The position numbers were made by a program, and so were the translations under genes. The notes under the pieces are model-generated. The model made no database searches, was not told the DNA's origin, and was given only the letters and a program-made list of their open reading frames with translations. Source: Candidatus Iainarchaeum sp. (GTDB taxonomy: Archaea; Iainarchaeota; Iainarchaeia; Iainarchaeales; JAFCCW01). Taken from it: a DNA stretch of 64,000 nt. Location of the stretch: NCBI GenBank assembly GCA_017609985.1, contig JAFCCW010000001.1, positions 116,189 to 180,188 of the forward strand, in the 5' to 3' direction. Shown piece by piece: positions 37,689 through 64,000 of this stretch (position 1 is its first letter; each line of letters begins with the position of its first letter).

Positions 37689-40600
37689 ATGGCAAAAGAC
37701 TACTTAAAGGACCTTATGAAAAAGGTTAAGGAAAAAAAAGAAGAAGAGGCAGAGCCCTCTGAAAAGCAAGACAAACAAGCACGTGTTTCTTCACCCAACT
37801 CTGGTTCTGAAGCTGAGCAAGTAAAAGAAGAGCTTGCTAAAAAAATGAAAATACTTTCCTCTCCTTCAAAAGACACTGAAACACCAGCCCCGGACGCAAG
37901 CCTTAAAGCGCCAACAATTGAACCAGAAGCTGAATCAGCACAGTCTCTGGAAGAAACAGTTGTTCCTGACAAAAGCGAAGTTGAAAAAGAAATAGAAGAA
38001 GCTCCCAAAAAAATAGAAATTGCTTCATATGGAAAAGTTAAGATTTTTAAGATTCCAGGCAAGGAAATGCTTTACTACTATGTTCCAGTGCCGCGCCCAA
38101 CCCGGGCTGAAAGAAACGTAATCAACACAATCAAAGAAGCAGCAACAAGACTGATAAGTATTGCGCCCTACAAGATACGCGATCCAGACCAGAGAAGAGT
38201 TGTTTACAGACAAAAAATAATTGAAATCCTTAAGGCTTCACCAGAACTTCACATCCCCCAGCACAGGTTTGAATTTTATGCAGAATCTGTTGTGCGAGAA
38301 ATGGTTGGATATGGATTAATTGATTCTCTTGTAAGCGATGACAGGCTTGAAGAAATAATGGTTATCGGTCCTGGAAAACCAGTTTACATTTTTCACAGAG
38401 ATTACGAAATGATGGCTTCAAACATTGAATTCTTTTCCGAAGACGAAGTACAAGATTTGATTAACAGAATAGCAAGGCAGATAGGGAGAAGAGTTGACAT
38501 TAGTTCGCCGCTTCTTGATTCTCGTCTGCCGGATGGAAGCAGAGTAAACGCAACTATTCCTCCTGCTTCAGTAAGCGGTTCTACTTTGACAATCAGAAAA
38601 TTCAGAGCAGATCCCTACTCCATGATTGACTTAATTAACATGGGTTCTCTTGGAACAGAGCTTGCTGCTTTTCTCTGGATGGCTGTAGAGGGACTGGGGG
38701 CAAGACCAGCAAATATTCTCATAGCTGGCGGAACCGGGAGTGGAAAAACAACCACGCTTAATGTTCTCGCATCATTTATTTCCGCAAGCGAAAGGATAGT
38801 TACGATTGAGGACACAGCTGAACTCAATCTTCCAATGCAGCACTGGATTAGAATGGAAGCAAGGCCACCTGGGCTTGAAGGAAAAGGAGAGTTAACACTT
38901 GACATTCTCACAAAAAATTCTTTAAGAATGAGACCTGACAGGATAATTGTCGGAGAAGTAAGACATGACGAAGCATTTTCTCTGTTCACTGCAATGAATA
39001 CAGGTCATGACGGAGCATTGACTAGCGATTCCTTAATTCAGCTTTCAGATGGCAACCTAGTTGAAATAGGGGAAATAGTTGAAAAGTCTTTTTCCCAAAA
39101 AAAGCCAACTTCAGAAAATGAATTTGAATTTGTTGAATTGTCAGAAAAAATAAAAGTTCCTTCCCTGAACAAGAAATCACTCAAGATTGAGCACAAGAAC
39201 ATTACTCATTGCTGGAGAAAAAAAACAAAAGAAAATATGATTAGAATAAAATTAAGAAGTGGAAAAGAAATTTGTCTCACAAAAGACCACCCGGTTTACA
39301 AAATTTTTAACGGAATTCAGGAAATAAACTCTTGCGATGCAAAAAAGGGAGACTATCTTGCAATTCCGAAGAAAATCTCTGTTGAATCAAAAGCAGAAGT
39401 TCCAATCCCATATCTTGTGGGGATGGTTCTTGGAGACGGGCATTTAAGGCACGGTCTTGTTGAATTTGTCAATACTGAAGATTCTTTGATTGATGCATTT
39501 TGCAATGAAATTTCTCCGTTAACAAACAATAAGGTTTCAGTAAAAGATTATGGTAATTTTTCACGAGTAAAAGTAAACGATACAAAATTGTCTAAAGAAT
39601 TAAACAAAAAATATTCTATTCCTTTTGGCAATAAAACAAAAAAATTTAAGATTGACAAAAAATTGTTAAAATCAACAAATGAAACAATTTCAGATGCTGT
39701 TAAAGCATTGTTTGATTGCGAAGCTCATGTGAACACAAAAGCAAATTGTATTCAGTTCTCAACAGCAAACAAGGATCTTGCTTTAAAAGTGCCACTTATT
39801 CTTATGCGATTTGGAATTCATTCTTCTTTCTATTCTCAAGAAAAAGATGGAAAAGGAAACAAAGGACCCTATTATTGGATTTCAATTTATGGGAGAGACA
39901 ATTTGGAAAAATTTAGAAAACATATTTGTTTCAGACATGAAAAGAAGAAAACCAAGCTTAATGAATTAATCAAAAAGTCAAAGAATGGTCTTGATTTGTT
40001 TCCGAATATTTCAAATATAATGCGAGATGCGAGAATTGAAAACAGAATTACTCAAAAAGAACTAAGCAGTCTTTTGGGAACGCAAACACGAAGTACTGTT
40101 CAATCTTATGAAACAAAAGCTAGAGCACCATCTAGAAAAAAACTTAAACAGATTGCGGGAATGCTCTCAGGAGAAACAGCCATGCAATTAAACTTGTTGT
40201 CTGATTCAGAAACATGTTTTGAAGAGATTGTTTCAATTGAAGAAGAAAAATTTGAAGGTTATGTGTATGATTTAACTGTTGAAGACAATCACAACTATAT
40301 TGCAAACGGATTTATAGTCTCAAATTGTCTGGGAACAGTCCATGCAAACTCGCCGCAGGAAACAATCATAAGAGTTACAAATCCTCCAATGAATGTTCCT
40401 GAAGTAATGATGTCCGGTCTTGATTTAATAATTATCCAGCACAGACTTCACTCCAAAAAGCAGGGAACAATAAGGCGCTTTACTGAAGTTGCAGAGGTTT
40501 CAGGAGTGCTGGAAGGCAAGACTCAGACTCAAACACTTTTTGACAGAGACCCGGTTGCAGACGATATTGTGAGAACAAATATTCCCAGCAATTACCTCAG

Positions 40601-40760
40601 AAAACTTCAAAACTTCACTGGAATGACAAAAAAGCAGATTGAAAAAGAATTAAGCGAAAGGGAAAGGTTTTTATCTATGCTCGCTAAAAAAGAAATAAGG
40701 TCTCTTGAAGAAGTCTCAAGAATGTGCGGAGAATTTCTAACAGAGAGGAAGGGAGAATAA
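37689..40760 (+). CDS. Type IV filament/secretion ATPase (TadA/EpdL/KlbA/VirB11 family), intein-containing
   Basis: Walker A GGTGSGKTTTLN, Walker B RPDRIIVGEVR, His box AMNTGHDG interrupted by 437 aa, then CLGTVHANSP. Acidic disordered ~115-aa N-terminus. Confidence 0.9.
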   Translation: MAKDYLKDLMKKVKEKKEEEAEPSEKQDKQARVSSPNSGSEAEQVKEELAKKMKILSSPSKDTETPAPDASLKAPTIEPEAESAQSLEETVVPDKSEVEKEIEEAPKKIEIASYGKVKIFKIPGKEMLYYYVPVPRPTRAERNVINTIKEAATRLISIAPYKIRDPDQRRVVYRQKIIEILKASPELHIPQHRFEFYAESVVREMVGYGLIDSLVSDDRLEEIMVIGPGKPVYIFHRDYEMMASNIEFFSEDEVQDLINRIARQIGRRVDISSPLLDSRLPDGSRVNATIPPASVSGSTLTIRKFRADPYSMIDLINMGSLGTELAAFLWMAVEGLGARPANILIAGGTGSGKTTTLNVLASFISASERIVTIEDTAELNLPMQHWIRMEARPPGLEGKGELTLDILTKNSLRMRPDRIIVGEVRHDEAFSLFTAMNTGHDGALTSDSLIQLSDGNLVEIGEIVEKSFSQKKPTSENEFEFVELSEKIKVPSLNKKSLKIEHKNITHCWRKKTKENMIRIKLRSGKEICLTKDHPVYKIFNGIQEINSCDAKKGDYLAIPKKISVESKAEVPIPYLVGMVLGDGHLRHGLVEFVNTEDSLIDAFCNEISPLTNNKVSVKDYGNFSRVKVNDTKLSKELNKKYSIPFGNKTKKFKIDKKLLKSTNETISDAVKALFDCEAHVNTKANCIQFSTANKDLALKVPLILMRFGIHSSFYSQEKDGKGNKGPYYWISIYGRDNLEKFRKHICFRHEKKKTKLNELIKKSKNGLDLFPNISNIMRDARIENRITQKELSSLLGTQTRSTVQSYETKARAPSRKKLKQIAGMLSGETAMQLNLLSDSETCFEEIVSIEEEKFEGYVYDLTVEDNHNYIANGFIVSNCLGTVHANSPQETIIRVTNPPMNVPEVMMSGLDLIIIQHRLHSKKQGTIRRFTEVAEVSGVLEGKTQTQTLFDRDPVADDIVRTNIPSNYLRKLQNFTGMTKKQIEKELSERERFLSMLAKKEIRSLEEVSRMCGEFLTERKGE
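39015..40325 (+). mobile_element. Intein (437 aa) with Ala1, LAGLIDADG homing-endonuclease domain and XRE-type HTH
   Basis: Block A ALTSDSLIQLSDGN, block B LTKDHPV, LAGLIDADG motifs LVGMVLGDGHL and ALFDCEAHV, blocks F/G YVYDLTVEDNHNYIANGFIVSN followed by +1 Cys. Confidence 0.85.
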
Positions 40761-41899
40761 TGTCTGACTTAAATTTTCTCAAAAAGAAAAAGAAAAAGTT
40801 TTCTTCAGTGGAAAGTGTCGACATGGAACAGGTTGATGACATAGTCAAAAAGATGAAGCAAAAATACAGAGACCAAGGAGTAGAGTTTGAAGAAGTTGGC
40901 GGCAGGCTAAGAGAGTTAAGGGGAATAATTGCTGATGGAAAAGCAGCAGAACTTCAGGTTCAAAGAGTAGAGGACTTAAAAGAATTCAAAAATCCATTAG
41001 TAAAAAATCTTGGTTCACTTTATCTAAAAATCAGATCCGTCAGCGAACCAATCTCAAACTTTTTGAGAAAATTGCCAGGAGTCAGAGAAATAGATTATTA
41101 TCTTTACTCAGCAAACATGCATTATTCAGTCAATCAATATCTTGCAATAACAACTGCTGCTGCACTGGTTATAACCGTGCTTGGATTTATTGGACTGGCA
41201 CTTCTTTTAGCAGTTGCAGGAGTAGACTTGATAACAGCCGCAATTCTTTTGCCATTGTTTACTTTCTTTGTATTTGTTTTGTCTGCAGCAATAGTCCTGC
41301 TTATTCCCAGACGAAACGCAAAAACAAGAGGAGATCTTGTAAGCAGGGAATTGCCGTTTGCATTAAGGCACATGGCAACAGAACTCAAATCAGGAATAGG
41401 TCTTTACAGAACAATTCAAGCAATAGCTTCTGCCGGATATGGTCCTTTGTCAGAAGAGTTTGCTGGAATGATTACTGAAGTGGAAGAGGGAACTGACACA
41501 AAACTTGCGTTAAGGCATCTTGCACTAAAAACACAGTCAATGGCTTTGAGAAATGCGTTACTGCACATAATCAGGGCAATGAAAACAGGAGGAAATCTCT
41601 CAGAAGTGATGAATGAAATTGCAGAAGATGTTTCATTTGAACTCAGAATGAAGATGCGGGAATTTTCTCAAAAGATGAACTTCTTTGGAGTGCTCTATAT
41701 TTTTATTGCAATTGTTATGCCAGTCATGCTTGCAGTGCTTGGGGGAATTAGAAATTCTCCAGTTGGAACAAGCGGAATATCAATGTTTTCTGCACTGCCT
41801 TTGACACTCGATGTTCTTGCAGTGCTCTTCCTATTCTTGCTTCCGCTCGTGTTTATATTGCTAATTGCATATTTGATGATGGCTCAGCCAAAGGTTTAG
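40760..41899 (+). CDS. Pilus platform membrane protein (TadB/EpdJ-like, T2SSF domain)
   Basis: TAATG overlap with the ATPase stop. LPFALRHMATELKSGIGL motif with flanking TMs. Confidence 0.8.
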   Translation: MSDLNFLKKKKKKFSSVESVDMEQVDDIVKKMKQKYRDQGVEFEEVGGRLRELRGIIADGKAAELQVQRVEDLKEFKNPLVKNLGSLYLKIRSVSEPISNFLRKLPGVREIDYYLYSANMHYSVNQYLAITTAAALVITVLGFIGLALLLAVAGVDLITAAILLPLFTFFVFVLSAAIVLLIPRRNAKTRGDLVSRELPFALRHMATELKSGIGLYRTIQAIASAGYGPLSEEFAGMITEVEEGTDTKLALRHLALKTQSMALRNALLHIIRAMKTGGNLSEVMNEIAEDVSFELRMKMREFSQKMNFFGVLYIFIAIVMPVMLAVLGGIRNSPVGTSGISMFSALPLTLDVLAVLFLFLLPLVFILLIAYLMMAQPKV

Positions 41900-41907
41900 G
41901 TGAAAAA

Positions 41908-42846
41908 ATGAAAAAAGAAATCAGACCATTAAATTTGCTGGAAAAATACAACAGGATTCTTGACCAAGCAGACATGAAGGCAAAAGCTGAACACTGGATT
42001 TTTGGTTCACTAGCAATATCAGTTGCTCTTGGCTTGGTTACATTTCTGATACTTTTCGCACTAAACACAGTAGTGTCCCCGTTTATGGGGTTAGTTATTT
42101 TTATTGCTGTTCTTGACCTGTCTCTTGGATATCCTTATCTCAGAGCAGAAGCCAGAATTGACAAAATTGAAGCAGCTCTGCCTGACACACTAAAGCAAAT
42201 TGCTGACACTCTAAAGGCGGGGGGAACATATGAATTTGCTCTAAGAGAAGTTGCAATTTCACAGTATGGTCCTCTCTCTGACGAAATGAACAATGTGCTT
42301 AGAAAGCTAGAGGAAGGAGAAAATCTTGAAAACTCTCTTAGAACACTTTCAGACAATATTGATTCAAGAATAGTTAAGAGAAGCATGGAAATAATTATTG
42401 ACTCAATCAAAGCAGGAGCAGGACTCGCAGATGTGCTTGACTCTATTGCAGACGATGTAAGTGCAATGCACCAGATAAAGAGGGGGAGAAAAGCACAGAC
42501 ACTAATGCAGTTTTTGTTTTTGCTTCTAGCAGGAGCAGCAGTTGCTCCGGCAATAATTGGGCTTGTCACGACTGTTATTTCCCTGTTCATAAAAAGTGCT
42601 TCAACAGGATTCATGGGTGGAGAAGAAGCAGTCAAGCAAGCTCTTGAATCAAGGGATATTATGGCATTGCTAATGCAAGTATACTTGTTTATTGAAATTA
42701 TTGCAACAGGAGTAATGATTTCCCTGATGAGGACAGGAAAGATAACCAAAAGTATTTTATATATCCCAATACTACTATTAATCGCTTATATATCTTACTA
42801 TGGAGCATTAATACTTTCCTCTATCGCAGTTGGAGGGGTTATATAA
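41908..42846 (+). CDS. Pilus platform membrane protein (TadC/EpdK-like, T2SSF domain)
   Basis: AGGTGA RBS. LPDTLKQIADTLKAGG motif with flanking TMs. Confidence 0.8.
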   Translation: MKKEIRPLNLLEKYNRILDQADMKAKAEHWIFGSLAISVALGLVTFLILFALNTVVSPFMGLVIFIAVLDLSLGYPYLRAEARIDKIEAALPDTLKQIADTLKAGGTYEFALREVAISQYGPLSDEMNNVLRKLEEGENLENSLRTLSDNIDSRIVKRSMEIIIDSIKAGAGLADVLDSIADDVSAMHQIKRGRKAQTLMQFLFLLLAGAAVAPAIIGLVTTVISLFIKSASTGFMGGEEAVKQALESRDIMALLMQVYLFIEIIATGVMISLMRTGKITKSILYIPILLLIAYISYYGALILSSIAVGGVI

Positions 42847-43582: not shown

Positions 43583-44719
43583 GTGATTAAAATATCCCAA
43601 CAGCTTCTTTTTTTCGAAATTGCTTATTTTTCTCTTGTGTTTACGGGAATCGCAATAGCAACCTTCACAGACCTTAAAGAGAGAATAATTCCAAACAAGC
43701 TGACCTATTCAATGATTGCAGTGGGTTTGCTTTTGCATCTTGCAGAATCAATTTTGCTTCAAAATTTTAATCCGATTCTGTTCAGTGCAATAATAACTGT
43801 TGCAACTTTTGGAGGCTCTTGGCTTTTGTGGAAAGCAGGAGTCTGGGCTGGTGGAGATGTAAAACTGTTCACAGGAATTGCTGCCTTGCTTCCTTATCTT
43901 CCATCAATTTCAGCTTCCAGTTCAGCTCTGAATTTTTTGCCGCAAGAGCTCACTTTCCTGCTGTCCTTTGTTCCACTAACGCTCTTTGTTCTATCAATTT
44001 TCTCAGCACTCCCCTATGGTGTGCTGATTAGTATTCACGCAATCTCCAAAAAGAGGGAATTCCAAAAACAGATTGTTCAAGATTTCAAAAAAAGATTTTT
44101 GCAAACAGCAGTGTTCTCGTTTCTTGTGGCTGGGTTAAGCTTTGCTCTTGTCGAGCTCTCAATTCCAGACCTGCTGTTGCTTCCAGTGCTTATAGTCACA
44201 GGATTTATTCCGGCAAAGGCAAGAAAGCTTGGGGCAATAGTCTTGTTTGCAGCAGCAGTTATTTTTCAAGGCACAACAGCAGTTATTGCTTTTTTTTCAG
44301 TTCTGATTCCACTCTCTATTCTTTATGCTTTGATAAAACTTTTCCTTGTTTCAAGGAAAGCCCTCAAAGAAGAAGTTAAAATTTCTGAAATCGAAGAAGG
44401 GACAATTCCTGCTGAAACAATTCTTGAAGTAGACGGAGTTGTTAAAAGAGTTGAAGGAATTTCAATAAAAACAATTATAAATAACATAAAGAATAATAAA
44501 ATGCAGGAAGCACTTGAAGAACTCGTGCCAAAAGGCAGGGAAATTGTTTCTGCAAAAAAAGCAAGAGGAGTCACAGACGAAGAAATTGCAGAACTAAAAA
44601 AGCTTGTGAAAGAGGGCAAAATTGAACCAGTCATGAAAGTCAAAAAAAGCATGCCCTTTGTTCCCACTGTCTTGATTGGTTTTATTGTGCTTATTGCATG
44701 GGTGATGTTATTTGGCTAA
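43583..44719 (+). CDS. Prepilin/preflagellin peptidase (A24 aspartic protease, FlaK/EppA-like)
   Basis: Catalytic Asp contexts FTDLKERIIPN and WAGGDVKLF. Soluble insert before the last TM. GTG start. Confidence 0.85.
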   Translation: MIKISQQLLFFEIAYFSLVFTGIAIATFTDLKERIIPNKLTYSMIAVGLLLHLAESILLQNFNPILFSAIITVATFGGSWLLWKAGVWAGGDVKLFTGIAALLPYLPSISASSSALNFLPQELTFLLSFVPLTLFVLSIFSALPYGVLISIHAISKKREFQKQIVQDFKKRFLQTAVFSFLVAGLSFALVELSIPDLLLLPVLIVTGFIPAKARKLGAIVLFAAAVIFQGTTAVIAFFSVLIPLSILYALIKLFLVSRKALKEEVKISEIEEGTIPAETILEVDGVVKRVEGISIKTIINNIKNNKMQEALEELVPKGREIVSAKKARGVTDEEIAELKKLVKEGKIEPVMKVKKSMPFVPTVLIGFIVLIAWVMLFG

Positions 44720-45152
44720 AATTGGAAAAAAAGGACAGGTTTCAATAGAATTCATGCTCTTGGTTGTAATGATGCTGATATATGGACACTTTCTTATCAC
44801 AAACCATGTGGAACCATCAGAGCTAGCAATCAATGACACTGCACAAGCAGCTCAAACAAGAATTGCTGCTGAAAGAATAGCAAACTCAATCAAAGAAGTT
44901 TCAGCCTCGTTTGGAGATGCAAAAAAAACAGTTCACATAAACATGCCTTCTGACTCAGAGCTAATTTGCAATCCTCCGGAAATGAATTTTAATGTTCTTG
45001 AAGAGGATAGTGTTTCAATAAAATATTCTGGTGTTGTTAATGCAGGCACATCATTCACCTGTTTGCCGGGCTCTGGCGTGAATTTAAAAGGCCCTTATTC
45101 TGTTGAAATAATCAAAACAGGTTCGGGAACAAATGTAATATTTAATGGATAA
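44712..45152 (+). CDS. Pilin-like protein (class III signal peptide)
   Basis: M(A)KIGKKG|QVSIEFMLLVV. TTG start overlapping the peptidase stop. Confidence 0.7.
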   Translation: MAKIGKKGQVSIEFMLLVVMMLIYGHFLITNHVEPSELAINDTAQAAQTRIAAERIANSIKEVSASFGDAKKTVHINMPSDSELICNPPEMNFNVLEEDSVSIKYSGVVNAGTSFTCLPGSGVNLKGPYSVEIIKTGSGTNVIFNG

Positions 45153-45169
45153 TTGGAAAAGGTGCTTTT

Positions 45170-45526
45170 GTGGAAAAAAAAGCTCAGGCAAGTTTTGAAA
45201 TGCTTTTCATAGCTCTTATAGTTCTCTCTGGAGCATTTGCTCTCACTAGCTTTTATTTTATTGAAGCAGACAGTCTTGGTTCACAATCAATCGCAAGAGC
45301 AGAGTATTCAAGAGTCTTTTCTGAACTAGCTGAGCAAAGAGGAATTTACTGCAGTTTGGACAGCATGAATTACAGTGGTTCAGGAGCAGGAGCAGATTTG
45401 ATTATCTATGTTTACCCGCCCAATAACTCTGAGTGCAAAACAATCTGTTCTTCCAATAGCTCAGAAATTGAAAGAATGATTGAAGAGAATACTTCTCTTG
45501 TAGCAATAAATATTTCCTGCTCATAG
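45170..45526 (+). CDS. Pilin-like protein (class III signal peptide)
   Basis: MEKKA|QASFEMLFIALIVL. GTG start after GGTG. Several N-x-S/T sequons. Confidence 0.7.
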   Translation: MEKKAQASFEMLFIALIVLSGAFALTSFYFIEADSLGSQSIARAEYSRVFSELAEQRGIYCSLDSMNYSGSGAGADLIIYVYPPNNSECKTICSSNSSEIERMIEENTSLVAINISCS

Positions 45527-45588
45527 CAAGAATTCAGAACAAACTTAGAAGAATTTTTAACAATTTTTATCTATTTCTTTATTGTTGA

Positions 45589-45948
45589 ATGCTAAATAGA
45601 GAGTTGGCTGCTAGAACAGCTCTTGCAATATCTATTGCAGGGATAGCCTTGCTTTTTATAGCCACTGCATTGGATTCTCCAAAAGAAATAATTCTGGGGG
45701 AAATTTCTCAAGAGCTTGTTGGCAAGCAGGTTAGAACAAAAGCTCTTGTTCAATGGACTTCACTCTCTTCCGGCATTCTATTGTTTGGATTGTACGATGG
45801 AAACACTGTCAAAGTAGTCAAATTCAACCCATCTCCTGAAGAAAAAGCAATTGTTTCAAAAGGACTATTTGTTTCAGTCAGCGGGGTAGTGCAGGACTAC
45901 AAGGGAGAGATTGAAATAGTTGCGGAAAGGATTGAAAAATATGGCTGA
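45589..45948 (+). CDS. Membrane-anchored OB-fold protein
   Basis: One N-terminal TM, then an OB-like V..V.GVVQDYKGEIEI pattern. Confidence 0.55.
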   Translation: MLNRELAARTALAISIAGIALLFIATALDSPKEIILGEISQELVGKQVRTKALVQWTSLSSGILLFGLYDGNTVKVVKFNPSPEEKAIVSKGLFVSVSGVVQDYKGEIEIVAERIEKYG

Positions 45949-47170
45949 TGTGCTTGAACTTCTTGTATATGTTGTTGGGGGGAGCATTGCAGGAGTATTC
46001 ACTGGACTCTGCCCTGGAGTGCATGTAAACACTGTTGCAATGCTGGCAGTAGCATTTTCAATTACTGGAAAACAAGAACTGTCTCTTGCAGTTATTTCAA
46101 TGGCTGTGACTCATTCAATAGTTGACTTTGTTCCAAGTGTATTACTTGGTGCGCCAAATTCATCAGAATTTCTATCAGTCCTGCCAGGCCATGAGCTTCT
46201 TTTGAAGGGAAAGGCAATGGAAGCAGTCAATTTAAGCGCATTAGGTGCTCTTTTTGGTGGCTTGGGGGCAATATTGCTTGGATTTGCTGTCTCAGAATTA
46301 GCAATTCAGTCAGCAGAAGTTCTTCAATTTTCAATTCCGTTTATTCTCTTAGCTGTTCTGATATTGATGGTTTTTGGAGAAGAAAGCAGGGTTCAGAGAA
46401 AAAGAGCTTTTCTTGTCGCGCTTCTTTCATCACTGCTTGGAATAATTGCATTGTCTTCTGCTACTTTAGCTTCTTCAAATTCTTCGGCTTTTTCGTCTTC
46501 TTCAAAGATGCTCTTTCCTCTTGTTACTGGTTTTTTCGGAGTTTCCAATCTTTTGCACTCAATTGGAAAAAACTCAAAAATTCCAAAACAAAAACCTTTC
46601 TCTGGAAAAACAAGCAGGAAACTTGTTTTTGAAGGCTGTGGAACAGGAATTATTGCAAGTGCTCTGGTTTCAATAATCCCATCTATCGGGCCTTCGCAGG
46701 CAGCCTTTCTTTTGAAGCACTTTGTTGGCTCAATCAAGAGAGAAAGCTATCTTGTCCTGCTTGGAGCAGTAGGCACAGCAAACACTGTTTTTTCATATTT
46801 TGTGTTCTTTTCGACAGGAAAAATAAGGACTGGTGTGGCAGCAGCAATTTCTGAGTTGGGGGCAGAACAAAACATCTTATACATAATCTCTGCTGTGTTT
46901 GTTTCCCTCGGAATCGGCTATTTTTTCTCACTCTATTTCTCTAAAAAAATTCTTTGCATTGTTCAAAAAGTAAATTATTCTGCTTTAAGCTCTGGAATAG
47001 CAGTGTTTCTCTCAATTCTTGTTGTGCTGTTTTCTGGAACAACAGGATTTCTTGTATTTGTGACAGCAACAGCAATCGGATACTATTCAATAGCTCGCGG
47101 AATAAAGAGAATCAACACCATGGCTTTTTTGATGGTGCCTACTATACTGATTTATTTGAATGCCTTCTAA
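45941..47170 (+). CDS. Polytopic membrane protein, TctA/DUF112-like
   Basis: GLCPGVHVNTVA motif and >=10 TM segments. ATG 45941 (track start is TTG). Confidence 0.55.
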   Translation: MADVLELLVYVVGGSIAGVFTGLCPGVHVNTVAMLAVAFSITGKQELSLAVISMAVTHSIVDFVPSVLLGAPNSSEFLSVLPGHELLLKGKAMEAVNLSALGALFGGLGAILLGFAVSELAIQSAEVLQFSIPFILLAVLILMVFGEESRVQRKRAFLVALLSSLLGIIALSSATLASSNSSAFSSSSKMLFPLVTGFFGVSNLLHSIGKNSKIPKQKPFSGKTSRKLVFEGCGTGIIASALVSIIPSIGPSQAAFLLKHFVGSIKRESYLVLLGAVGTANTVFSYFVFFSTGKIRTGVAAAISELGAEQNILYIISAVFVSLGIGYFFSLYFSKKILCIVQKVNYSALSSGIAVFLSILVVLFSGTTGFLVFVTATAIGYYSIARGIKRINTMAFLMVPTILIYLNAF

Positions 47171-47178
47171 GATATGTA

Positions 47179-47577
47179 ATGGATTTCAAAGATTTCAATC
47201 ATTTCAAAGCCACCAAGATAAAAGAATCAACTCTTGAAGACATTCTTGAAGCTTCGCGCAATACTTACCCAAACGAGTTCATGGCATTGCTTGGGGGAGA
47301 TAAGAAAGCAGGAGTTGTGGATGAAATAGTTATTGTTCCCGCAACCTATGGGCGAGAGCACGCAATAATTCACACAAACCAGGTTCCAATGGATTTTAGG
47401 ATAATGGGCAGTGTTCACTCTCATCCGTCTCCAAATGCTTTCCCTTCAAAAGGGGACTTGCGCACTTTTCCACGACTTGGAGAGATACATTTTATAATCG
47501 CTTACCCCTTTGATTTAAACAGTACAAGAGCCTTTGACTCTGCGGGAAATGAAATAGAATTTGAGGTAATTGAATAA
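47179..47577 (+). CDS. JAMM/MPN+ metalloprotease domain protein
   Basis: Exact HxHx7Sx2D motif: HSHPSPNAFPSKGD, with upstream E (NEFMALLGG). Confidence 0.8.
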   Translation: MDFKDFNHFKATKIKESTLEDILEASRNTYPNEFMALLGGDKKAGVVDEIVIVPATYGREHAIIHTNQVPMDFRIMGSVHSHPSPNAFPSKGDLRTFPRLGEIHFIIAYPFDLNSTRAFDSAGNEIEFEVIE

Positions 47578-47603
47578 AGGAAAAAAAAGCTCAAGGGATT
47601 TGA

Positions 47604-49145
47604 ATGAATCAAAAAGAAAAAATTGTTCTCATTGTAATGGATGGCTGGGGAATTGCGCCTGCTGGAAAAGGAAACTGCATTTCTCAGGCAAGCACTCCAA
47701 ACTATGACAGATTTATTGCAAACTATCCAAACTGTGAAAATAAGGCATCTGGGAAAGCAGTTGGTTTGCCAGAGGGAAGTCAGGGAAACAGTGAGGTTGG
47801 ACATCTTCACATGGGCGCAGGCAGGATTGTCTGGCAACCGTTTCAAAAAATAAACAACGAGATTGAAAAAGGAAGTTTTTTCAAGAATCCTGCTTTGCTT
47901 AAGGCAATCAAAGAAGCAAGAGAAAACAAAACTATTCTTCACTTAATGGGATTGTGCTCTGATGAAGGAGTGCATGCGCACATTGCTCATCTGTTTGCAT
48001 TGCTTGAGATGGCAAAAAAAGAGGGCTTGGAAAAAGAACAGGTTCTGATTCACTTTTTTGCAGACGGTCGGGATGTTCCTGAAAAAAGTGCTTCAAAATA
48101 TATCACGCAAATTGAAAGCAAGTGCAAAGAGCTTGGCATAGGAATGATCGCAAGTCTTATTGGAAGATATTATTCAATGGACAGAGACAACAACTGGAAA
48201 AGAACAAAAAAAGCATATAAAATGTTAACGTTTGGAAAAGGATTCAAAGCAAAGAATGCCTTGTCCGCAGTTAAAGAATCTTACGAGCGCGGAGACAAAA
48301 CAGACTACTATATTCAGCCGACTGTGATTGAAAATGCATTCAAACCAGTTAAAGACAAGGACTCAATAATTTTCTTCAATTTTAGAACAGACAGACCAAG
48401 ACAGCTGACAAAAGCTTTTTTGCTCAAAGACTTTAAAGAATTCAAAAGAGAAAAAAAGCCAAGCGTATTGTTTACAACATTTACTCAGTATGATAAAAGC
48501 GTAAAAACTGGAGTCGCATTTGAAGAAGAACAAGTTTCAGTCACTCTTGGAGGCGTGATTGCTGAAGCTGGATTAAAACAGCTTCGCATTGCGGAAACAG
48601 AAAAATATGCTCATGTAACCTATTTTTTTAATTCTCAAAATGAAAATCCCTATCCTGGAGAGGAAAGAAAGCTTGTTCCCTCTCCAAAAGTCTCAAGCTA
48701 TGATCAAAAGCCGGAAATGTCTGCCTACGAGCTTGCGGAAGAAACAGAAAAAGCAATTTATTCAAAAAAATACGACTTTGTTCTGTTAAACTTTGCAAAC
48801 TGCGATCTTGTAGGACACTCTGCAGTTATTCCTGCAATAATCAAGTGTGTTGAAGTAGTTGACGAGTGTGTGGGGAGAGTAGTGAAGAAAGCATTAGAAA
48901 ATGGGTATAGCTGCCTGCTCACCGCAGACCATGGGAGTGCAGAAGAAAAATTATATCCAAACGGCGAGCCAAATCCAGCTCACACTACAAATCCTGTTCC
49001 ATTTATTCTTGTTTCGAATAATCCTGCACTGAAAAAAGTCAAGCTTGCGAACGGAGGCCAAAAAGATGTTGCTCCAACAGTAATTGAATTAATGGGGCTA
49101 AAAAAGCCAGGTGAAATGACTGGCGAGAGCCTTATTGAAGACTAA
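47604..49145 (+). CDS. gpmI: 2,3-bisphosphoglycerate-independent phosphoglycerate mutase (bacterial GpmI type)
   Basis: IVMDGWG, GNSEVGH, TADHGSAE motifs; 513 aa. Confidence 0.9.
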   Translation: MNQKEKIVLIVMDGWGIAPAGKGNCISQASTPNYDRFIANYPNCENKASGKAVGLPEGSQGNSEVGHLHMGAGRIVWQPFQKINNEIEKGSFFKNPALLKAIKEARENKTILHLMGLCSDEGVHAHIAHLFALLEMAKKEGLEKEQVLIHFFADGRDVPEKSASKYITQIESKCKELGIGMIASLIGRYYSMDRDNNWKRTKKAYKMLTFGKGFKAKNALSAVKESYERGDKTDYYIQPTVIENAFKPVKDKDSIIFFNFRTDRPRQLTKAFLLKDFKEFKREKKPSVLFTTFTQYDKSVKTGVAFEEEQVSVTLGGVIAEAGLKQLRIAETEKYAHVTYFFNSQNENPYPGEERKLVPSPKVSSYDQKPEMSAYELAEETEKAIYSKKYDFVLLNFANCDLVGHSAVIPAIIKCVEVVDECVGRVVKKALENGYSCLLTADHGSAEEKLYPNGEPNPAHTTNPVPFILVSNNPALKKVKLANGGQKDVAPTVIELMGLKKPGEMTGESLIED

Positions 49146-49197
49146 TTTTACTTATCGAACACTAATTTTATATACAGAATAAACTATTAATATCATC

Positions 49198-49575
49198 ATG
49201 AAAAGAGGACAAGTAAGCTTTGATGCAATGCTTGCATTAGTTGCAATGATTGTGTTTCTAAGCATGTTGTTTGTAATTTTTGGGTCTGTTGAAAGCGCTT
49301 CACAAGAATCAGCCATGAAAGCACAGGCAAAATTGATCCTGGGTTCAACAGCAGATGCAATAGCAGCAAAGCAAATACTGAGAGACGGAAGCAACAAGAT
49401 TTATTTTGAGGTTCCAGACCTGCCAAACTCTGAGCCAGGCTCTTGTCAGGTTACTGTTTCTGGAGGCCAGGCAACAGTAAGCTATGAATACAAAGGAGTG
49501 ATTGAACAAGTAAGCACTCCAGTTGTTGGTTCGCATAGTCTTAGTCAAGTATGTGGGAGCAGTGAAGTTATATGA
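49198..49575 (+). CDS. Pilin-like protein
   Basis: MKRG|QVSFDAMLALVAMIVFL. Confidence 0.65.
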   Translation: MKRGQVSFDAMLALVAMIVFLSMLFVIFGSVESASQESAMKAQAKLILGSTADAIAAKQILRDGSNKIYFEVPDLPNSEPGSCQVTVSGGQATVSYEYKGVIEQVSTPVVGSHSLSQVCGSSEVI

Positions 49576-50060
49576 ATCGAAAAGCCCAGATTTTCTCACT
49601 TGACTTTCTTTTCTCTCTAGCAATAATGGTTTTAGTAATTGGATTTATTCTAATGTTCCTAGACCTTTCGCTTGCAGCACAAAAAGATGAAATGATTTGG
49701 ACAGAGTTGAAGGAGACCGGAAACACTGCATCAAACCTGTTAGTGGGAAATCCAAAAATAACCTGTGATTTGGTTGATGTCTCCGGCGACAAAATAATGG
49801 AGATGCCAAACTGCGTTAACAAAAGTGCTTCATTTTCAAGAACAGATTTAGGAATTCCATCTGCATCTGAAGGCTATCAATGCAGGATAACAATTGGAAG
49901 CTGGGTTGCACCAGCCTGCAATACATCACCTCCATCCTCAGCTTCAAATATTTATTCAACTCAAAGAATTGTGATTTCAAGCAATGGAGATGTAAGAAAA
50001 GATTCAATTCCTTCAAATCATGAAATAGCAGAAATAAAAGTCTGGAGGTCACTAGCTTGA
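49572..50060 (+). CDS. Pilin-like protein
   Basis: ATGA overlap. MNRKA|QIFSLDFLFSLAIMVLVIGF. Confidence 0.6.
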   Translation: MNRKAQIFSLDFLFSLAIMVLVIGFILMFLDLSLAAQKDEMIWTELKETGNTASNLLVGNPKITCDLVDVSGDKIMEMPNCVNKSASFSRTDLGIPSASEGYQCRITIGSWVAPACNTSPPSSASNIYSTQRIVISSNGDVRKDSIPSNHEIAEIKVWRSLA

Positions 50061-50335
50061 AGAAAGGATTTATTTTCTCGCTTGACGCAGCTCTGGCAGC
50101 AATGCTTGCTCTCTCGCTTGTAACAGTGGGCTTGCTTATTATTGCTTGGGGCGAAGCAAACAATTTCAGTGAAGTGCAAAAATATGCAGCAGACGCAGCA
50201 ATTGTTTCATCATACACTCTTGAAGAGCCAGGAGAATTCTCTTCAGAAGGAATTAACCAAGCGATTTCAAACAGTTCAGAAAACGGAGCCTGCTTTAGCT
50301 ATTCAGGAAAAAACTATTGCAGTGAGACAGGATGA
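50057..50335 (+). CDS. Pilin-like protein
   Basis: TTGA overlap. MKKG|FIFSLDAALAAMLALSLV. Confidence 0.55.
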   Translation: MKKGFIFSLDAALAAMLALSLVTVGLLIIAWGEANNFSEVQKYAADAAIVSSYTLEEPGEFSSEGINQAISNSSENGACFSYSGKNYCSETG

Positions 50336-50799
50336 AAAAAGGATTTTACACAGCAGCAGTTGCTATTGCAGCAATAATGATACTTTCAGCAGTTTCTTTT
50401 TACACTCTTTCAGTAACTCAAACAGAGTCAACTCATCTGTCACAGGATGCTGCAATACTCAAAGGAGAATGGGTAAAATCAGCAAGGCTTATTGATTACG
50501 AGATAGCGCAGATGATTTACAATAATCCAGCAGGATGTGATTGTGCAGGCGCGGTTAACGTAGCAGGGCTTCAAACAGCACTCAACACTGCAAAAATAAA
50601 CTGTGCTGTCGGAGCAGGTCTTGACTATGTCTGTTCAGGAAACACTGCAACAGCAACAGTTCCAATCAAATGCTATTTTTCAGGAATGGAATATGAAAAA
50701 ACAGTTGATTATGAAAAACAGGTTTTGACTGGAGCAGGGTGTGAAGTTCTTGATGTGCAAAGCAACTCTGTTCAAAGCAATGGAACTATTTGGGATTAA
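50332..50799 (+). CDS. Pilin-like protein
   Basis: ATGA overlap. MKKG|FYTAAVAIAAIMILSAVSF. Cys-rich C-terminal domain. Confidence 0.55.
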   Translation: MKKGFYTAAVAIAAIMILSAVSFYTLSVTQTESTHLSQDAAILKGEWVKSARLIDYEIAQMIYNNPAGCDCAGAVNVAGLQTALNTAKINCAVGAGLDYVCSGNTATATVPIKCYFSGMEYEKTVDYEKQVLTGAGCEVLDVQSNSVQSNGTIWD

Positions 50800-61181: not shown

Positions 61182-61967
61182 TCAAGAAACAAGAGCAAGA
61201 AAGCTGTTCACAAAATAGTAGGGGAGAAGAGAGATGTTAAAAAACGGAAAACCATAGAACACAGAAGTATATTTTCCCGAGAGAGTCTGAAAAACAAGAA
61301 GTTTTGCATCAAACATCTTTGAAAAATCATTCAATTTTGATTCAATTCTGAAAGAAAATTCTCTTGGGCCGTAAGAGCGGGGAACAAGCTCTAACTCAAA
61401 AACAGTTGTGTCCATTGCAGGAATTTCAAGAACAATGTCTTCAAACCAGTAACTCGGAAGAGTGCTGGACACAAAGAGCCGGTGGTCAGCAATTGAATTA
61501 TTTGAAACAGAGAGCCCAAATTTAGTTGGTGCGCCAACCATTGTCTCCTGTGACAAATTCACCATATCCACTGAGAGAAGCTGTTTTTTTACTGAAACGC
61601 GTGCATTGAGAAAAGCAGGAGCAAAAATATCCTCATCAGAAGAAAGCCCTATTTTTAGCAATTGAGTGCTTTCAACAGCATTTTCCGGAACAGAAACAAG
61701 AATTATGAGGGAATCGCGCTGTTGTTCCCAGCTAAAACTCCAGCCAGCAGGAACACTGCTTTGCTCTTCAACAATTTTGTCCCAATAAAAGTCTCCAAAA
61801 CGTCTTTTGACGATTATTTCAATTGTTTCTCCGCATGAAACACTTCCGAGTTCTAGAATGCCCTCATCTGCAACATCTGCCTTAACAGGTTCCAAAACAC
61901 TTATATCAGAATACGCTGATGACACAAAGAGAAGTAAAACAAGAGCAAGTAAAAGCCTTTTAAACAT
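61182..61967 (-). CDS. Secreted beta-sandwich protein with C-terminal hydrophobic anchor
   Basis: Signal peptide MFKRLLLALVLLLFVSSAYS. Confidence 0.6.
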   Translation of the reverse strand: MFKRLLLALVLLLFVSSAYSDISVLEPVKADVADEGILELGSVSCGETIEIIVKRRFGDFYWDKIVEEQSSVPAGWSFSWEQQRDSLIILVSVPENAVESTQLLKIGLSSDEDIFAPAFLNARVSVKKQLLSVDMVNLSQETMVGAPTKFGLSVSNNSIADHRLFVSSTLPSYWFEDIVLEIPAMDTTVFELELVPRSYGPREFSFRIESKLNDFSKMFDAKLLVFQTLSGKYTSVFYGFPFFNISLLPYYFVNSFLALVS

Positions 61968-62017
61968 TCCAATCCCCGTAATAAATTACTGCTCAAGAAA
62001 CTTAAAAGGCTTTTGTT

Positions 62018-62146
62018 ATGAAAATACTCGCAATATCAGATATCCATTCACATTTAAACAAGATTTTGGAACTCCTGAAACACGCAGGAAAACCTGACTT
62101 GTATATAGTTTTTGAAAATGTTTTTTTTTTTTTGAAAATTCTTTAA
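62018..62146 (+). pseudogene. Remnant of a metallophosphoesterase gene (N-terminal 28 codons only)
   Basis: MKILAISDIHSHLNKILELLKHAGKPDL is calcineurin-like motif I. The reading then runs into a T13 tract and stops. Confidence 0.4.
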
Positions 62147-62166
62147 AATAGACAAACAGTGTTAAA

Positions 62167-64000
62167 TTATTTTATCTTTCTTCTGCCAACAATTTTTGTT
62201 ATTTTATCCAATTCTTCGTGAATCTTTTTTTCAGATTTAACAAATGTATTGTCCTCCAACAAGCCATTTGAATGCAGTTTCTTCAATTCTTTCAATGCTT
62301 TTTTCAATTCCTCGCTTTCTTTAAGCAATTCTGGCTTAGTTTTCAGAACTTTTGTAATCTCCGCAAGCTTTTTTCCTATTGCTTTTTTTGATTCATTGAA
62401 AGCCTCTTCAGGCAAGAGTTTTTTTGAATGCATTTCCTTTAATGCTTCAAAGTTTTTTTGCAATTCTGCTTTTTTCTTTAGCAACTGCTTCTTTGTCTTT
62501 AAACTGAGGTCTTTTAAACCCTCTAATTCTTTTTCCTGCTCTGCAACTTTTTTATCTACAGCTTCAAATTCGTTTCCTAAAACAAGCATTTTCTCTTTTT
62601 TATGGACATCTTTCCCAATGTTTGCTTTTTTTACTGCATTATCTTTTATTGCATTTTCTTTGGTTTCATCAGCTTTTGCCTTTGCTTCAGCACTGGTTTT
62701 TTTTTCATTTGCGTCTTTAACCTTATTTTTTGTTATCTTTTCTCTTGAAACAATCATATCTTCAATCTTCTTTTTCCAAGCAAAACTATCACTTAATTCT
62801 TTCAGTTCAAATGTAAAAATTTCCTCTTCTTCCCTGTCCCTTGCATTGACTACAACACCGAATGTTTTCCCGGTTATTTCAATATTCTTTATTTCAAATA
62901 CTTCCTCTGGTTCAGAGTTTAACTTTTTCTTTGCTTTTGATTTCATTAAACTTATTTTCCTGTGAACCTTCTTTCTTCTCTTGGCAAAGAATACTATTAA
63001 AGCGAACAGTGCTATTGCAATAACAGCGACAAAAAACCATTTGCTTGGGAATATCCAAACAGTAAACGGCTTTTCAGGAGCATGAACTATTACAAGAAGC
63101 TCTTTGAATAACTTGTTTTCTCCATTATCTGCAAATATTAAACCATCCCTGCTTTTAACTGTTAAAACAAGATTTTGCACTCCACTCCGATAAGAAGTTT
63201 TTACTTTAAATTTTAATCTTTTCTGTTGCCCAGCTTTAAGCAACAAACAAGTCTTGTTTTTTTCAATTTCCCAATCAAGAGGAGTAAGCAGTGAAACATC
63301 CAAATTCAAATCCCTTAGACTATTGTTGAACAGCACAACATCAATTTCTCCAGAGCCTCCAACCATCATTCTTGAAATGTGAATATTTCTAAATCTTATC
63401 TCTGCCAAGCTTTTCTTCATAACTCTTAAAACACTTTTCACTTCCTCAGAATCATTTTTGCTTAAAACCTTAAATTTAATTAAATGGTCTTTAACCTCTG
63501 CATTTAAAGGAACAGAAACTTTTACAATAAATGAAACCTCCTCATTAGGAGCTAAAGAAAACTTATCCTGCTCAACCGCATACCACTCTAAAAGCAATCC
63601 ATCAATGCTTAACTTTAAATCTGTTAAATTTCCTTCCCCCACATTTCTTGCTTTAACCAAAAAGAATTCAACTGCTTCCTGCTTTACAACCATCTCGCTT
63701 GGAAACTCTTCAATAGAAATTTTTCCAACAAGCCCAGGCAAAGTAATTAAAGCACTTGCACCGCCTCCACTTCCTGACCCGTTGCCTGTGTCAATGTCCG
63801 GCTCTGTTTCTTCTTCAGATTCATCTGTTGCAACAAACTGTCTTGAAGCAGCACTTGTTTCAGCTCCATAATAAACCTTTACCTTAAACCAATATGTCCC
63901 AGCTGAAGCAACACTCAAGTTCAAATCAGTATTCCAACTTTCCCCTGCAACAATAAACTTTGCTCCTGAAGCATAACTTTCATCATCACCCCTGCCACAC
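62167..64000 (-). CDS. Surface protein with CARDB/COG1470-like beta-sandwich repeats, one TM and a cytoplasmic coiled-coil tail with two SHOCT-like repeats (5' end outside window)
   Basis: Frame stays open to nt 64000. TM WFFVAVIAIALFALIVFFAKRRKK. Tail repeats LKEMHSKKLLPEEAF... and LKKLHSNGLLEDNTF... Confidence 0.7.
   Translation of the reverse strand, partial: CGRGDDESYASGAKFIVAGESWNTDLNLSVASAGTYWFKVKVYYGAETSAASRQFVATDESEEETEPDIDTGNGSGSGGGASALITLPGLVGKISIEEFPSEMVVKQEAVEFFLVKARNVGEGNLTDLKLSIDGLLLEWYAVEQDKFSLAPNEEVSFIVKVSVPLNAEVKDHLIKFKVLSKNDSEEVKSVLRVMKKSLAEIRFRNIHISRMMVGGSGEIDVVLFNNSLRDLNLDVSLLTPLDWEIEKNKTCLLLKAGQQKRLKFKVKTSYRSGVQNLVLTVKSRDGLIFADNGENKLFKELLVIVHAPEKPFTVWIFPSKWFFVAVIAIALFALIVFFAKRRKKVHRKISLMKSKAKKKLNSEPEEVFEIKNIEITGKTFGVVVNARDREEEEIFTFELKELSDSFAWKKKIEDMIVSREKITKNKVKDANEKKTSAEAKAKADETKENAIKDNAVKKANIGKDVHKKEKMLVLGNEFEAVDKKVAEQEKELEGLKDLSLKTKKQLLKKKAELQKNFEALKEMHSKKLLPEEAFNESKKAIGKKLAEITKVLKTKPELLKESEELKKALKELKKLHSNGLLEDNTFVKSEKKIHEELDKITKIVGRRKIK

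Follow-up and report, generated by a model that had tools for sequence, protein, structure and literature searches.

The 64 kb window analysed here, a stretch of 64,000 nucleotides from contig JAFCCW010000001.1 of Candidatus Iainarchaeum sp., carries on its plus strand the gene of a T2SSE/PilB/TadA-like ATPase whose His box is interrupted by 437 codons. The nature of this insert, a putative class 2 (KlbA-type) intein with a nested homing endonuclease, was analysed. The 3 kb ATPase frame contains no frameshifts and no stops, and its parts are as follows.

37689-40760, plus strand: ATPase open reading frame, translated as a precursor of 1023 amino acids (aa)
37689..39014, plus strand: N-extein, residues 1-442, T2SSE/PilB/TadA-like ATPase (Pfam T2SSE)
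39015..40325, plus strand: whole predicted intein, 437 aa, from Ala1 to Ser436-Asn437
40326..40760 (stop codon included), plus strand: C-extein, opening with Cys+1 (TGT, 40326-40328)

The N-extein contains the Walker A motif GGTGSGKTT, and its last residues, AMNTGHDG, form the first half of the His box. The insert starts with ALTSDSLIQ at precursor residue 443, and the second half of the box, CLGTVHANSP, opens the C-extein at residue 880. The 437 codons (39015-40325) lie between the two histidines of the box, which reads AMNTGHDG/CLGTVHANS when a slash marks the junction. The junction codons are CAT GAC GGA/GCA TTG ACT on the upstream side and GTC TCA AAT/TGT CTG GGA on the downstream side. 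A preliminary description, made from the sequence of this DNA, had placed a 437-aa insert at exactly these positions, and the translation agreed with it to the residue. The T2SSE match on the precursor scored 147 bits over residues 210-445 and broke off at the insert. On joining the exteins in silico the match became continuous over the junction (residues 210-483) and its score rose to 167 bits. The predicted spliced ATPase has 586 aa and an intact His box, NTGHDG-CLGTVHAN, and the predicted peptide over the spliced junction contains NTGHDGCLGTVHANSPQ.

The joined exteins were compared with their 120 best matches, which were taken as the orthologue set. The His box was uninterrupted in 111 of these closest orthologues (59-75% identity), and several of the empty ones read exactly NTGHDG/CLGTVHAN, which is the predicted spliced product. 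An insert at the His-box site was found in nine of the 120, the window protein included, either as a full-length intein or as a mini-intein. The closest orthologues were labelled as Candidatus Diapherotrites, Iainarchaeum or Nanoarchaeota metagenome-assembled genomes (MAGs). Because 111 of the 120 have an uninterrupted box, the segment is read as a sporadic mobile insert and not as a host domain. The preliminary description had itself raised the alternative that homologues might reveal a conserved accessory domain of the ATPase family which is never excised. No point was found in its support, and the orthologue comparison refuted it; the T2SSE match that is broken by the segment and restored on its removal, and the predicted fold of HINT and LAGLIDADG type described below, also stand against it. 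The probability of this explanation is next to nil.

Splicing blocks and class of the insert

The residues expected to take part in splicing were located on the plus strand as given below.

39015..39380, plus strand: N-terminal HINT half, intein aa 1-122, aligning with 2JMZ residues 8-134
39015-39017 (GCA), plus strand: Ala1, block A, a non-nucleophilic first residue
39279-39281, plus strand: Thr89 (B:7), block B
39288-39290, plus strand: His92 (B:10), block B
40203..40325, plus strand: C-terminal splicing half, intein aa 397-437, blocks F and G
40269-40271, plus strand: Asp419 (F:4), block F
within block F, plus strand: His426 (F:13) and Tyr428 (F:15)
40320-40322 (TCA), plus strand: Ser436 (G:6), block G
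40323-40325 (AAT), plus strand: Asn437 (G:7), block G

The Pfam family Intein_splicing matched the segment with 102 bits against a cut-off of 35.8. The top sequence match in the PDB was 2JMZ/2JNQ, the MJ0781 KlbA intein precursor of Methanocaldococcus jannaschii (Mja), with an E value of 3.4e-27, and this alignment, a check that the preliminary description had proposed, covers both splicing halves (intein aa 1-122 and 402-431). The second match was PI-PkoII (E 4.9e-19). The KlbA-type intein family was reportedly described in 2000. Blocks A (ALTSDSLIQLSDGN), B (LTKDHPV) and F/G (YVYDLTVEDNHNYIANGFIVSN) all align with their counterparts in the Mja KlbA intein; these blocks and two LAGLIDADG motifs, LVGMVLGDGHL and ALFDCEAHV, are present as had been proposed earlier. 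Two alignments were used for conservation, one of 15 same-site inteins and one of five sequences, namely the window intein and its four closest full-length relatives (52-56% identity). In the 15-sequence alignment His92, Tyr418, Asp419, Leu420 and Thr421 are invariant and Thr89 is nearly so.

Every class 2 intein known to Mills, Johnson and Perler (PMC4031507) was an orthologue of Mja KlbA and had both Ala1 and a Ser in position G:6; in their account Cys+1 attacks the amide of the N-terminal junction directly, and this junction is activated by Thr B:7, His B:10 and Asp F:4. A role of Asp147 (F:4) and Tyr156 (F:15) in the Mja KlbA intein was described by Tori et al. (PMC2807308). In the literature class 2 was a very small group, comprising five archaeal orthologues in 2009 (PMC2807308, PMC4031507). 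The window insert is assigned to class 2 because it has all sequence hallmarks of the class, i.e. Ala1, Thr B:7, His B:10, Asp F:4, Ser G:6, Asn G:7 and Cys+1. The Ala1 class 2 type proposed in the preliminary description is thereby borne out, the Mja KlbA intein being also the best solved relative. The Ser-Asn end is present as well, though it is no additional peculiarity as had been thought, being a feature of all class 2 inteins (PMC4031507). With a probability of about 0.9, segment 39015-40325 is a class 2 (KlbA-type, Ala1) intein with a nested LAGLIDADG endonuclease and a helix-turn-helix (HTH) domain, which would splice by the KlbA route.

Another splicing route was considered, in which either a cysteine of block F mediates class 3 splicing or a Ser/Thr close by, such as Thr3 or Ser4, undergoes an acyl shift as in class 1. 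Class 3 inteins likewise have a non-nucleophilic residue 1, and Thr3, Ser4 and Ser6 are close to the intein N-terminus. However, class 3 is defined by the triplet Trp B:12/Cys F:4/Thr G:5 (PMC2807308), and on reading the sequence this WCT triplet was absent, with Val at B:12, Asp instead of Cys at F:4 and Val at G:5. The residues Thr3, Ser4 and Ser6 are unconserved, relatives having Ala, Lys, Ile or Gly there, and the segment belongs to the KlbA lineage, for which direct attack of Cys+1 has been reported (PMC2807308, PMC4031507). A route of this kind is extremely improbable.

A decayed intein which does not splice, so that the ATPase gene is functionally dead or the precursor has another role, is somewhat less remote and still very improbable. 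Nothing specific speaks for it; a non-nucleophilic residue 1 and the lack of a penultimate His would disable a class 1 intein. Against this, Ala1 with Ser G:6 is the combination found in the Mja KlbA intein, which splices experimentally (PMC4031507, PMC2807308), and Thr B:7, His B:10, Asp F:4, Tyr F:15, Asn G:7 and Cys+1 are all retained. The uninterrupted 3 kb frame and the position of the gene at the head of an otherwise intact pilus locus also disagree with decay.

The KlbA-type assignment was compared with known inteins of the same site. The Mja KlbA intein (MJ0781; 2JMZ/2JNQ), the class 2 prototype, is found in the same host family at the same insertion point (GHDG/C-x-G-T-x-H-A-N), and both inteins have Ala1, Thr B:7, His B:10, Asp F:4, Tyr F:15, Ser G:6, Asn G:7 and Cys+1. 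It differs in being a mini-intein of about 168 aa without endonuclease, whereas the window intein has 437 aa with LAGLIDADG and HTH domains inserted after block B. The hosts differ also, Mja being a hyperthermophilic methanogen and the window host, judged by the names of its nearest homologues, a mesophile-like, low-G+C archaeon of DPANN type. A nearly identical 166-aa intein of Methanocaldococcus sp. (P0008) is inserted at the same position, NTGHDG/ALAYDEP…AVSN/CSGTLHANS, and is 43-55% identical to the window intein over the two splicing halves. The idea that the insert is the same insertion allele as KlbA held, the position being identical in Methanocaldococcus sp., Pyrococcus horikoshii and P. 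yayanosii.

The P. horikoshii KlbA intein (BAA29741.1/WP_010884748.1; 520 aa) shares the site, Ala1, the Ser-Asn/Cys+1 end and a nested DOD/LAGLIDADG endonuclease, and one source names the protein a DOD-type homing endonuclease domain-containing protein. An endonuclease on a KlbA intein, which the preliminary description had pointed out for the window, was thus already known. The junctions of the P. horikoshii cluster read NTGHDG/ALYDFS…LVSN/CMGTIHSN. This intein is only 27% identical to the window intein overall and exceeds it by 83 aa, with additional sequence ahead of the first LAGLIDADG helix. The layout of the window intein was also seen in an uncultured Methanococcales-like cluster of 978-aa ATPases (P0131, 24 members), which has a 437-aa intein at the same site with the order HINT-LAGLIDADG-HTH-HINT and 44% identity over the full length, endonuclease included. 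In its splicing blocks this cluster follows the Mja type (HTYIAGKYGGFIISN), with a 3-residue loop before block G, a loop that is missing in the DPANN clade.

For the window intein a mechanism is proposed by homology with the Mja KlbA intein, on the summaries given in PMC2807308 and PMC4031507. The 1023-aa precursor would fold. As residue 1 lacks a nucleophile, the thiol of Cys+1 would then make a direct attack on the Gly-1/Ala1 peptide bond, giving the block G branched thioester; Thr89 (B:7), His92 (B:10) and Asp419 (F:4) would activate the N-terminal junction in this step. Cyclisation of Asn437 would release the intein, and an S-to-N acyl shift would join the exteins to the 586-aa ATPase with NTGHDG-CLGTVHAN intact. 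The unspliced precursor is very likely inactive, because the insert parts two histidines of a motif which is conserved in all 111 uninterrupted orthologues, and therefore pilus assembly would depend on splicing. The pilus is thought to serve DPANN-type organisms for host attachment. Since a single thiol, that of Cys+1, would carry out the first chemical step, the intein could also be imagined as a redox-sensitive post-translational switch, in which an oxidised or modified Cys+1 holds the ATPase inactive and so gates pilus assembly; this idea is speculative and improbable.

Nested endonuclease, predicted fold and mobility

Two further domains lie between the splicing halves, and the modules of the AlphaFold model follow the same order.

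39396..39989, plus strand: homing endonuclease domain of LAGLIDADG type, approximately intein aa 128-325 (Pfam LAGLIDADG_3)
39435-39437, plus strand: Asp141, acidic residue of block C in LVGMVLGDGHL
39720-39722, plus strand: Glu236, acidic residue of block E in ALFDCEAHV
40011..40202, plus strand: XRE-type HTH accessory domain, approximately intein aa 333-396, following the endonuclease and preceding the C-terminal splicing blocks
intein 7-118 and 400-435: beta-rich HINT halves (AlphaFold)
intein 132-321: two alpha-beta-beta-alpha-beta-beta-alpha LAGLIDADG halves (AlphaFold)
intein 333-396: helical bundle (AlphaFold)

The LAGLIDADG_3 family (PF14528) matched with 52.1 bits against a cut-off of 22.5. 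With this match and both acidic residues, the endonuclease named in the preliminary description was recovered. Asp141 and Glu236, along with the stretches GNKTK, DGKGN, GPY and FDCExHVN, do not vary among the four closest full-length relatives, and the Asp of block C and an acidic residue in block E are kept in every endonuclease-bearing member of the 15-sequence alignment, down to 37% identity. The inactivity of the PhoVMA endonuclease was put down to the loss of the acidic residues that terminate the helices of blocks C and E (PMC8966425). The conservation of these residues argues for selection on the endonuclease.

The HTH domain, which the preliminary description had missed, matched HTH_3 over aa 337-382 with 27.7-28.4 bits against a cut-off of 23. 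A layout of three modules, with HINT, endonuclease and an accessory domain before the C-terminal HINT half, was described by Beyer and Iwaï (PMC8966425), and the accessory domains of both the TliVMA intein and PI-TkoII look like DNA binders of helix-turn-helix type (PMC8966425). The HTH_3 domain most likely helps the endonuclease to bind DNA. Acting on DNA, the LAGLIDADG endonuclease and the HTH domain would cut an intein-less allele and the element would be copied into it.

The fold of the intein alone was predicted with AlphaFold on the 15-sequence alignment, with a mean pLDDT (predicted local distance difference test) of 93.4 and a pTM (predicted template modelling score) of 0.91. The model shows two LAGLIDADG helices, at 132-140 and 222-236, each followed by strands. 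The HINT fold, on which the preliminary description had made its reading depend, is present in the prediction, and Foldseek matched intein HINT domains, 2JMZ among them, at probability 1.00. The top PDB matches in Foldseek were inteins bearing endonucleases, i.e. TliVMA 7QSS (template modelling score, TM, 0.79), PI-PfuI 1DQ3 (TM 0.74), PI-PkoII 2CW7 and PI-SceI. These were followed by mini-inteins including 2JMZ (HINT part, 43% identity) and by the free-standing I-DmoI; the endonuclease fold matched PI-PfuI, the TliVMA intein, I-DmoI and I-Tsp061I. TliVMA (7QSS), PI-PfuI (1DQ3) and PI-TkoII/PkoII (2CW7) have HINT, LAGLIDADG and accessory domains like the window intein (TM 0.69-0.79). They differ in having Cys1 (class 1) and in their hosts, which are V-ATPase, ribonucleotide reductase and DNA polymerase, and they are only 15-21% identical to it.

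The distribution of same-site inteins was then compiled. The interrupted orthologues among the 120 include full-length 437-aa relatives with 52-56% identity (P0043, P0064 and P0065) and endonuclease-less mini-inteins of 181-183 aa (P0080/83/84 and P0100); a further 183-aa mini-intein, P0005, came from a separate intein search. A scan of one genome per species added 14 more full-length relatives (39-60% identity) from Iainarchaeum, Micrarchaeota/Micrarchaeia and other archaeal MAGs. The scan used patterns from the 5-sequence alignment which lay in the endonuclease, and its yield is therefore confined to relatives that bear an endonuclease; the 15-sequence alignment diverged too far to supply patterns. 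In a profile search against 1.8 billion representatives, ATPase-borne relatives came first and inteins of other host proteins after them, and the sources among the top matches included MSBL1, Hadarchaeales, Diapherotrites, Micrarchaeota and Pyrococcus. Roughly 30 same-site inteins were gathered in this analysis. Empty alleles, full-length inteins and mini-inteins together give the usual picture of a homing cycle. The +1 residue is Cys wherever a same-site intein begins with Ala, Met or Val, and Cys, Ser or Thr in empty alleles, which fits a requirement for a thiol at +1.

The composition of the intein was compared with its surroundings. Its G+C content is 31.8%, against 41.6% for the N-extein, 40.0% for the C-extein and 38.9% for the window; so low a value is reached in only 0.4% of the 1311-nt windows of the 64 kb. 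At third codon positions the G+C (GC3) is 24.7% for the intein and 33.1% for the exteins. Lys and Asn are much more frequent in the intein than in the exteins, and part of the G+C deficit is due to this Lys/Asn-rich composition. The hand counts of the preliminary description were right, with 21.3% for 39531-39680 and 49.3% for 38681-38820, both being extreme sub-windows. The deficit which it had pointed out is real; the foreign origin which it had read from it is weakly founded, as intein G+C tracks locus G+C over 12 related loci (r = 0.99, range 25-61%, mean difference -2 points). With this tracking and the Lys/Asn bias, low G+C was rejected as evidence of recent import, and the inteins of the KlbA site are largely adapted to host composition.

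Several points weigh against the assignment given above or parts of it. Splicing, the class 2 route and endonuclease activity are deduced from homology and conserved residues. The fold is a prediction for the intein alone. The G+C tracking across relatives points to long residence and not to recent arrival. The deduced empty site is GCAATGAATACAGGTCATGACGGA followed directly by TGTCTGGGAACAGTCCATGCAAAC, and an exact 30-nt search for this allele in metagenome contigs of the Joint Genome Institute (JGI) gave 0 matches and so no direct sign of ongoing homing in this population. The label of the host as a pilus ATPase, as opposed to the ATPase of another type IV filament, comes only from the gene neighbourhood described in the next section.

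The sole serious alternative is that the intein is of KlbA type and competent in splicing while its endonuclease has ceased to home, the element being a long-resident, vertically inherited passenger late in the homing cycle. The G+C tracking, the lack of an exact empty allele among the metagenome contigs, and the loss of the endonuclease in close orthologues (P0005, P0080, P0100) and in P. yayanosii (P0195, HTH only) are in accordance with it. However, the reading frame is intact, both acidic residues and the four conserved stretches are invariant in the four closest full-length relatives, and the acidic residues persist in more distant ones. The patchy distribution, with about nine occupied and 111 empty close alleles, is also the product expected of active gain and loss. 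This alternative is possible and on balance unlikely, and the KlbA-type intein with a maintained endonuclease is preferred.

Relatives at the same site, pilus-like locus and significance

Variation of the terminal residues was observed among the relatives of the KlbA-type intein. Some same-site homologues (33-58% identity) lack Ala1 and keep Ser-Asn/Cys+1; their first residue is Met in P0004, P0080/P0083/P0084 and P0136, Val in P0133 and P0149, and Ser at locus L002 (3001-4314). The penultimate residue is His in P0003 (MSBL1) and Gly in P0043. A further set, found at the same site in the close ATPase orthologues P0057, P0146 and P0154, is class 1-like with Cys1…Gly-Asn/Ser+1. These inteins have 461-464 aa, the HINT-LAGLIDADG-HTH layout and about 25-28% identity to the window intein, and the best PDB matches of P0057 were PI-PfuI, CDC21 and KlbA inteins at similar scores, not specifically KlbA. 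The set may be a diverged sister lineage or an independent invasion. The same-site clade, with Ala, Met, Val, Ser or Cys as first residue, may form a natural series spanning the boundary between class 1 and class 2.

Variation in domain content was also seen. P0004 and P0136 (532-536 aa) and P0133 and P0149 (565 aa) have about 100 extra aa after the HTH domain and ahead of the C-terminal splicing blocks, in a stretch which is apparently helical and has no Pfam call in the listed domains. The 236-aa intein of P. yayanosii (P0195) at the same site has lost LAGLIDADG and kept HTH, and aligns to window intein aa 318-437. Locus L002 (JAFCBY010000013.1) has an archaeal-type pilus ATPase with its intein in a bin labelled Candidatus Falkowbacteria, a bacterium of the candidate phyla radiation (CPR), and is probably a mis-binned archaeal contig. 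In two Nanoarchaeota MAGs (L015 3001-3552 and L016 651-908), LAGLIDADG relatives with 28-34% identity to the endonuclease part of the window were found, the latter with the motif FDCEAHVN. The matched stretches have no flanking KlbA-type splicing blocks and may belong to relatives of the nested endonuclease that stand free or have other hosts.

The genes downstream of the ATPase gene were listed as follows.

40724-41899, plus strand: first T2SSF (TadB/TadC/FlaJ-like) membrane platform gene (Pfam T2SSF 74.9 bits)
41908-42846, plus strand: second T2SSF (TadB/TadC/FlaJ-like) membrane platform gene (Pfam T2SSF 55.9 bits)
43583..44719, plus strand: archaeal prepilin (class III signal) peptidase, A24 family (Peptidase_A24 55.8 bits, Arc_PepC 54.1 bits)
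44712..50799, plus strand: stretch with six small pilin-like open reading frames, starting at 44712, 45170, 49198, 49572, 50057 and 50332

Both T2SSF genes follow the ATPase gene directly. The translations of the six small reading frames begin with basic residues and Gly/Ala followed by a hydrophobic helix, as in pilins. Two of the six gave Class_IIIsignal matches below threshold (20.6 and 16.9 bits against a cut-off of 23.7), and the other four were assigned by reading the sequence. Unrelated genes are interspersed among them, e.g. one at 47604-49145 that is phosphoglycerate mutase-like. Taken together, the genes downstream agree with a type IV pilus-like locus, which makes "pilus ATPase", in the sense of an archaeal (Tad/Epd-like) assembly ATPase, a reasonable name for the host protein.

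In the remainder of the window, the family profile run against all six-frame reading frames gave no second intein, matching the ATPase gene only, and Rfam and tRNA scans of the whole 64 kb found no rRNA, no tRNA and no other RNA feature. The only other patch as poor in G+C as the intein (31-32%) lies at about 61750-62300. It was rejected as an intein or endonuclease, as it consists of a spacer between two minus-strand genes and a Lys-rich protein tail, the latter being the C-terminus of a 585-aa putative surface or membrane protein.

The window intein is well supported as a canonical new member of the known KlbA family and would come as no surprise to a specialist. Databases have contained KlbA inteins with an endonuclease since the Pyrococcus genomes, and the HTH accessory domain is a described module (PMC8966425). 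What goes slightly beyond the reviews is found in the relatives and not in the window, namely Met, Val or Ser as first residue, His or Gly as penultimate residue and the Cys1…Gly-Asn/Ser+1 set. A literature search on inteins in DPANN archaea returned nothing about the His-box site, which does not show that the site is undescribed.

For annotation, the intein accounts for a "1023-aa ATPase" that is about 440 aa overlong, the mature product being a normal 586-aa pilus ATPase. For the family, the window adds to a very small group a clear full-length, endonuclease-bearing class 2 member from a DPANN-like lineage, and the gathered relatives extend the KlbA family to Iainarchaeota, Micrarchaeota, MSBL1 and Hadarchaeales. 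Those relatives in which Met, Val, Ser or Cys comes first, or in which His or Gly is penultimate, are natural variants for studying how direct attack on the amide becomes possible.

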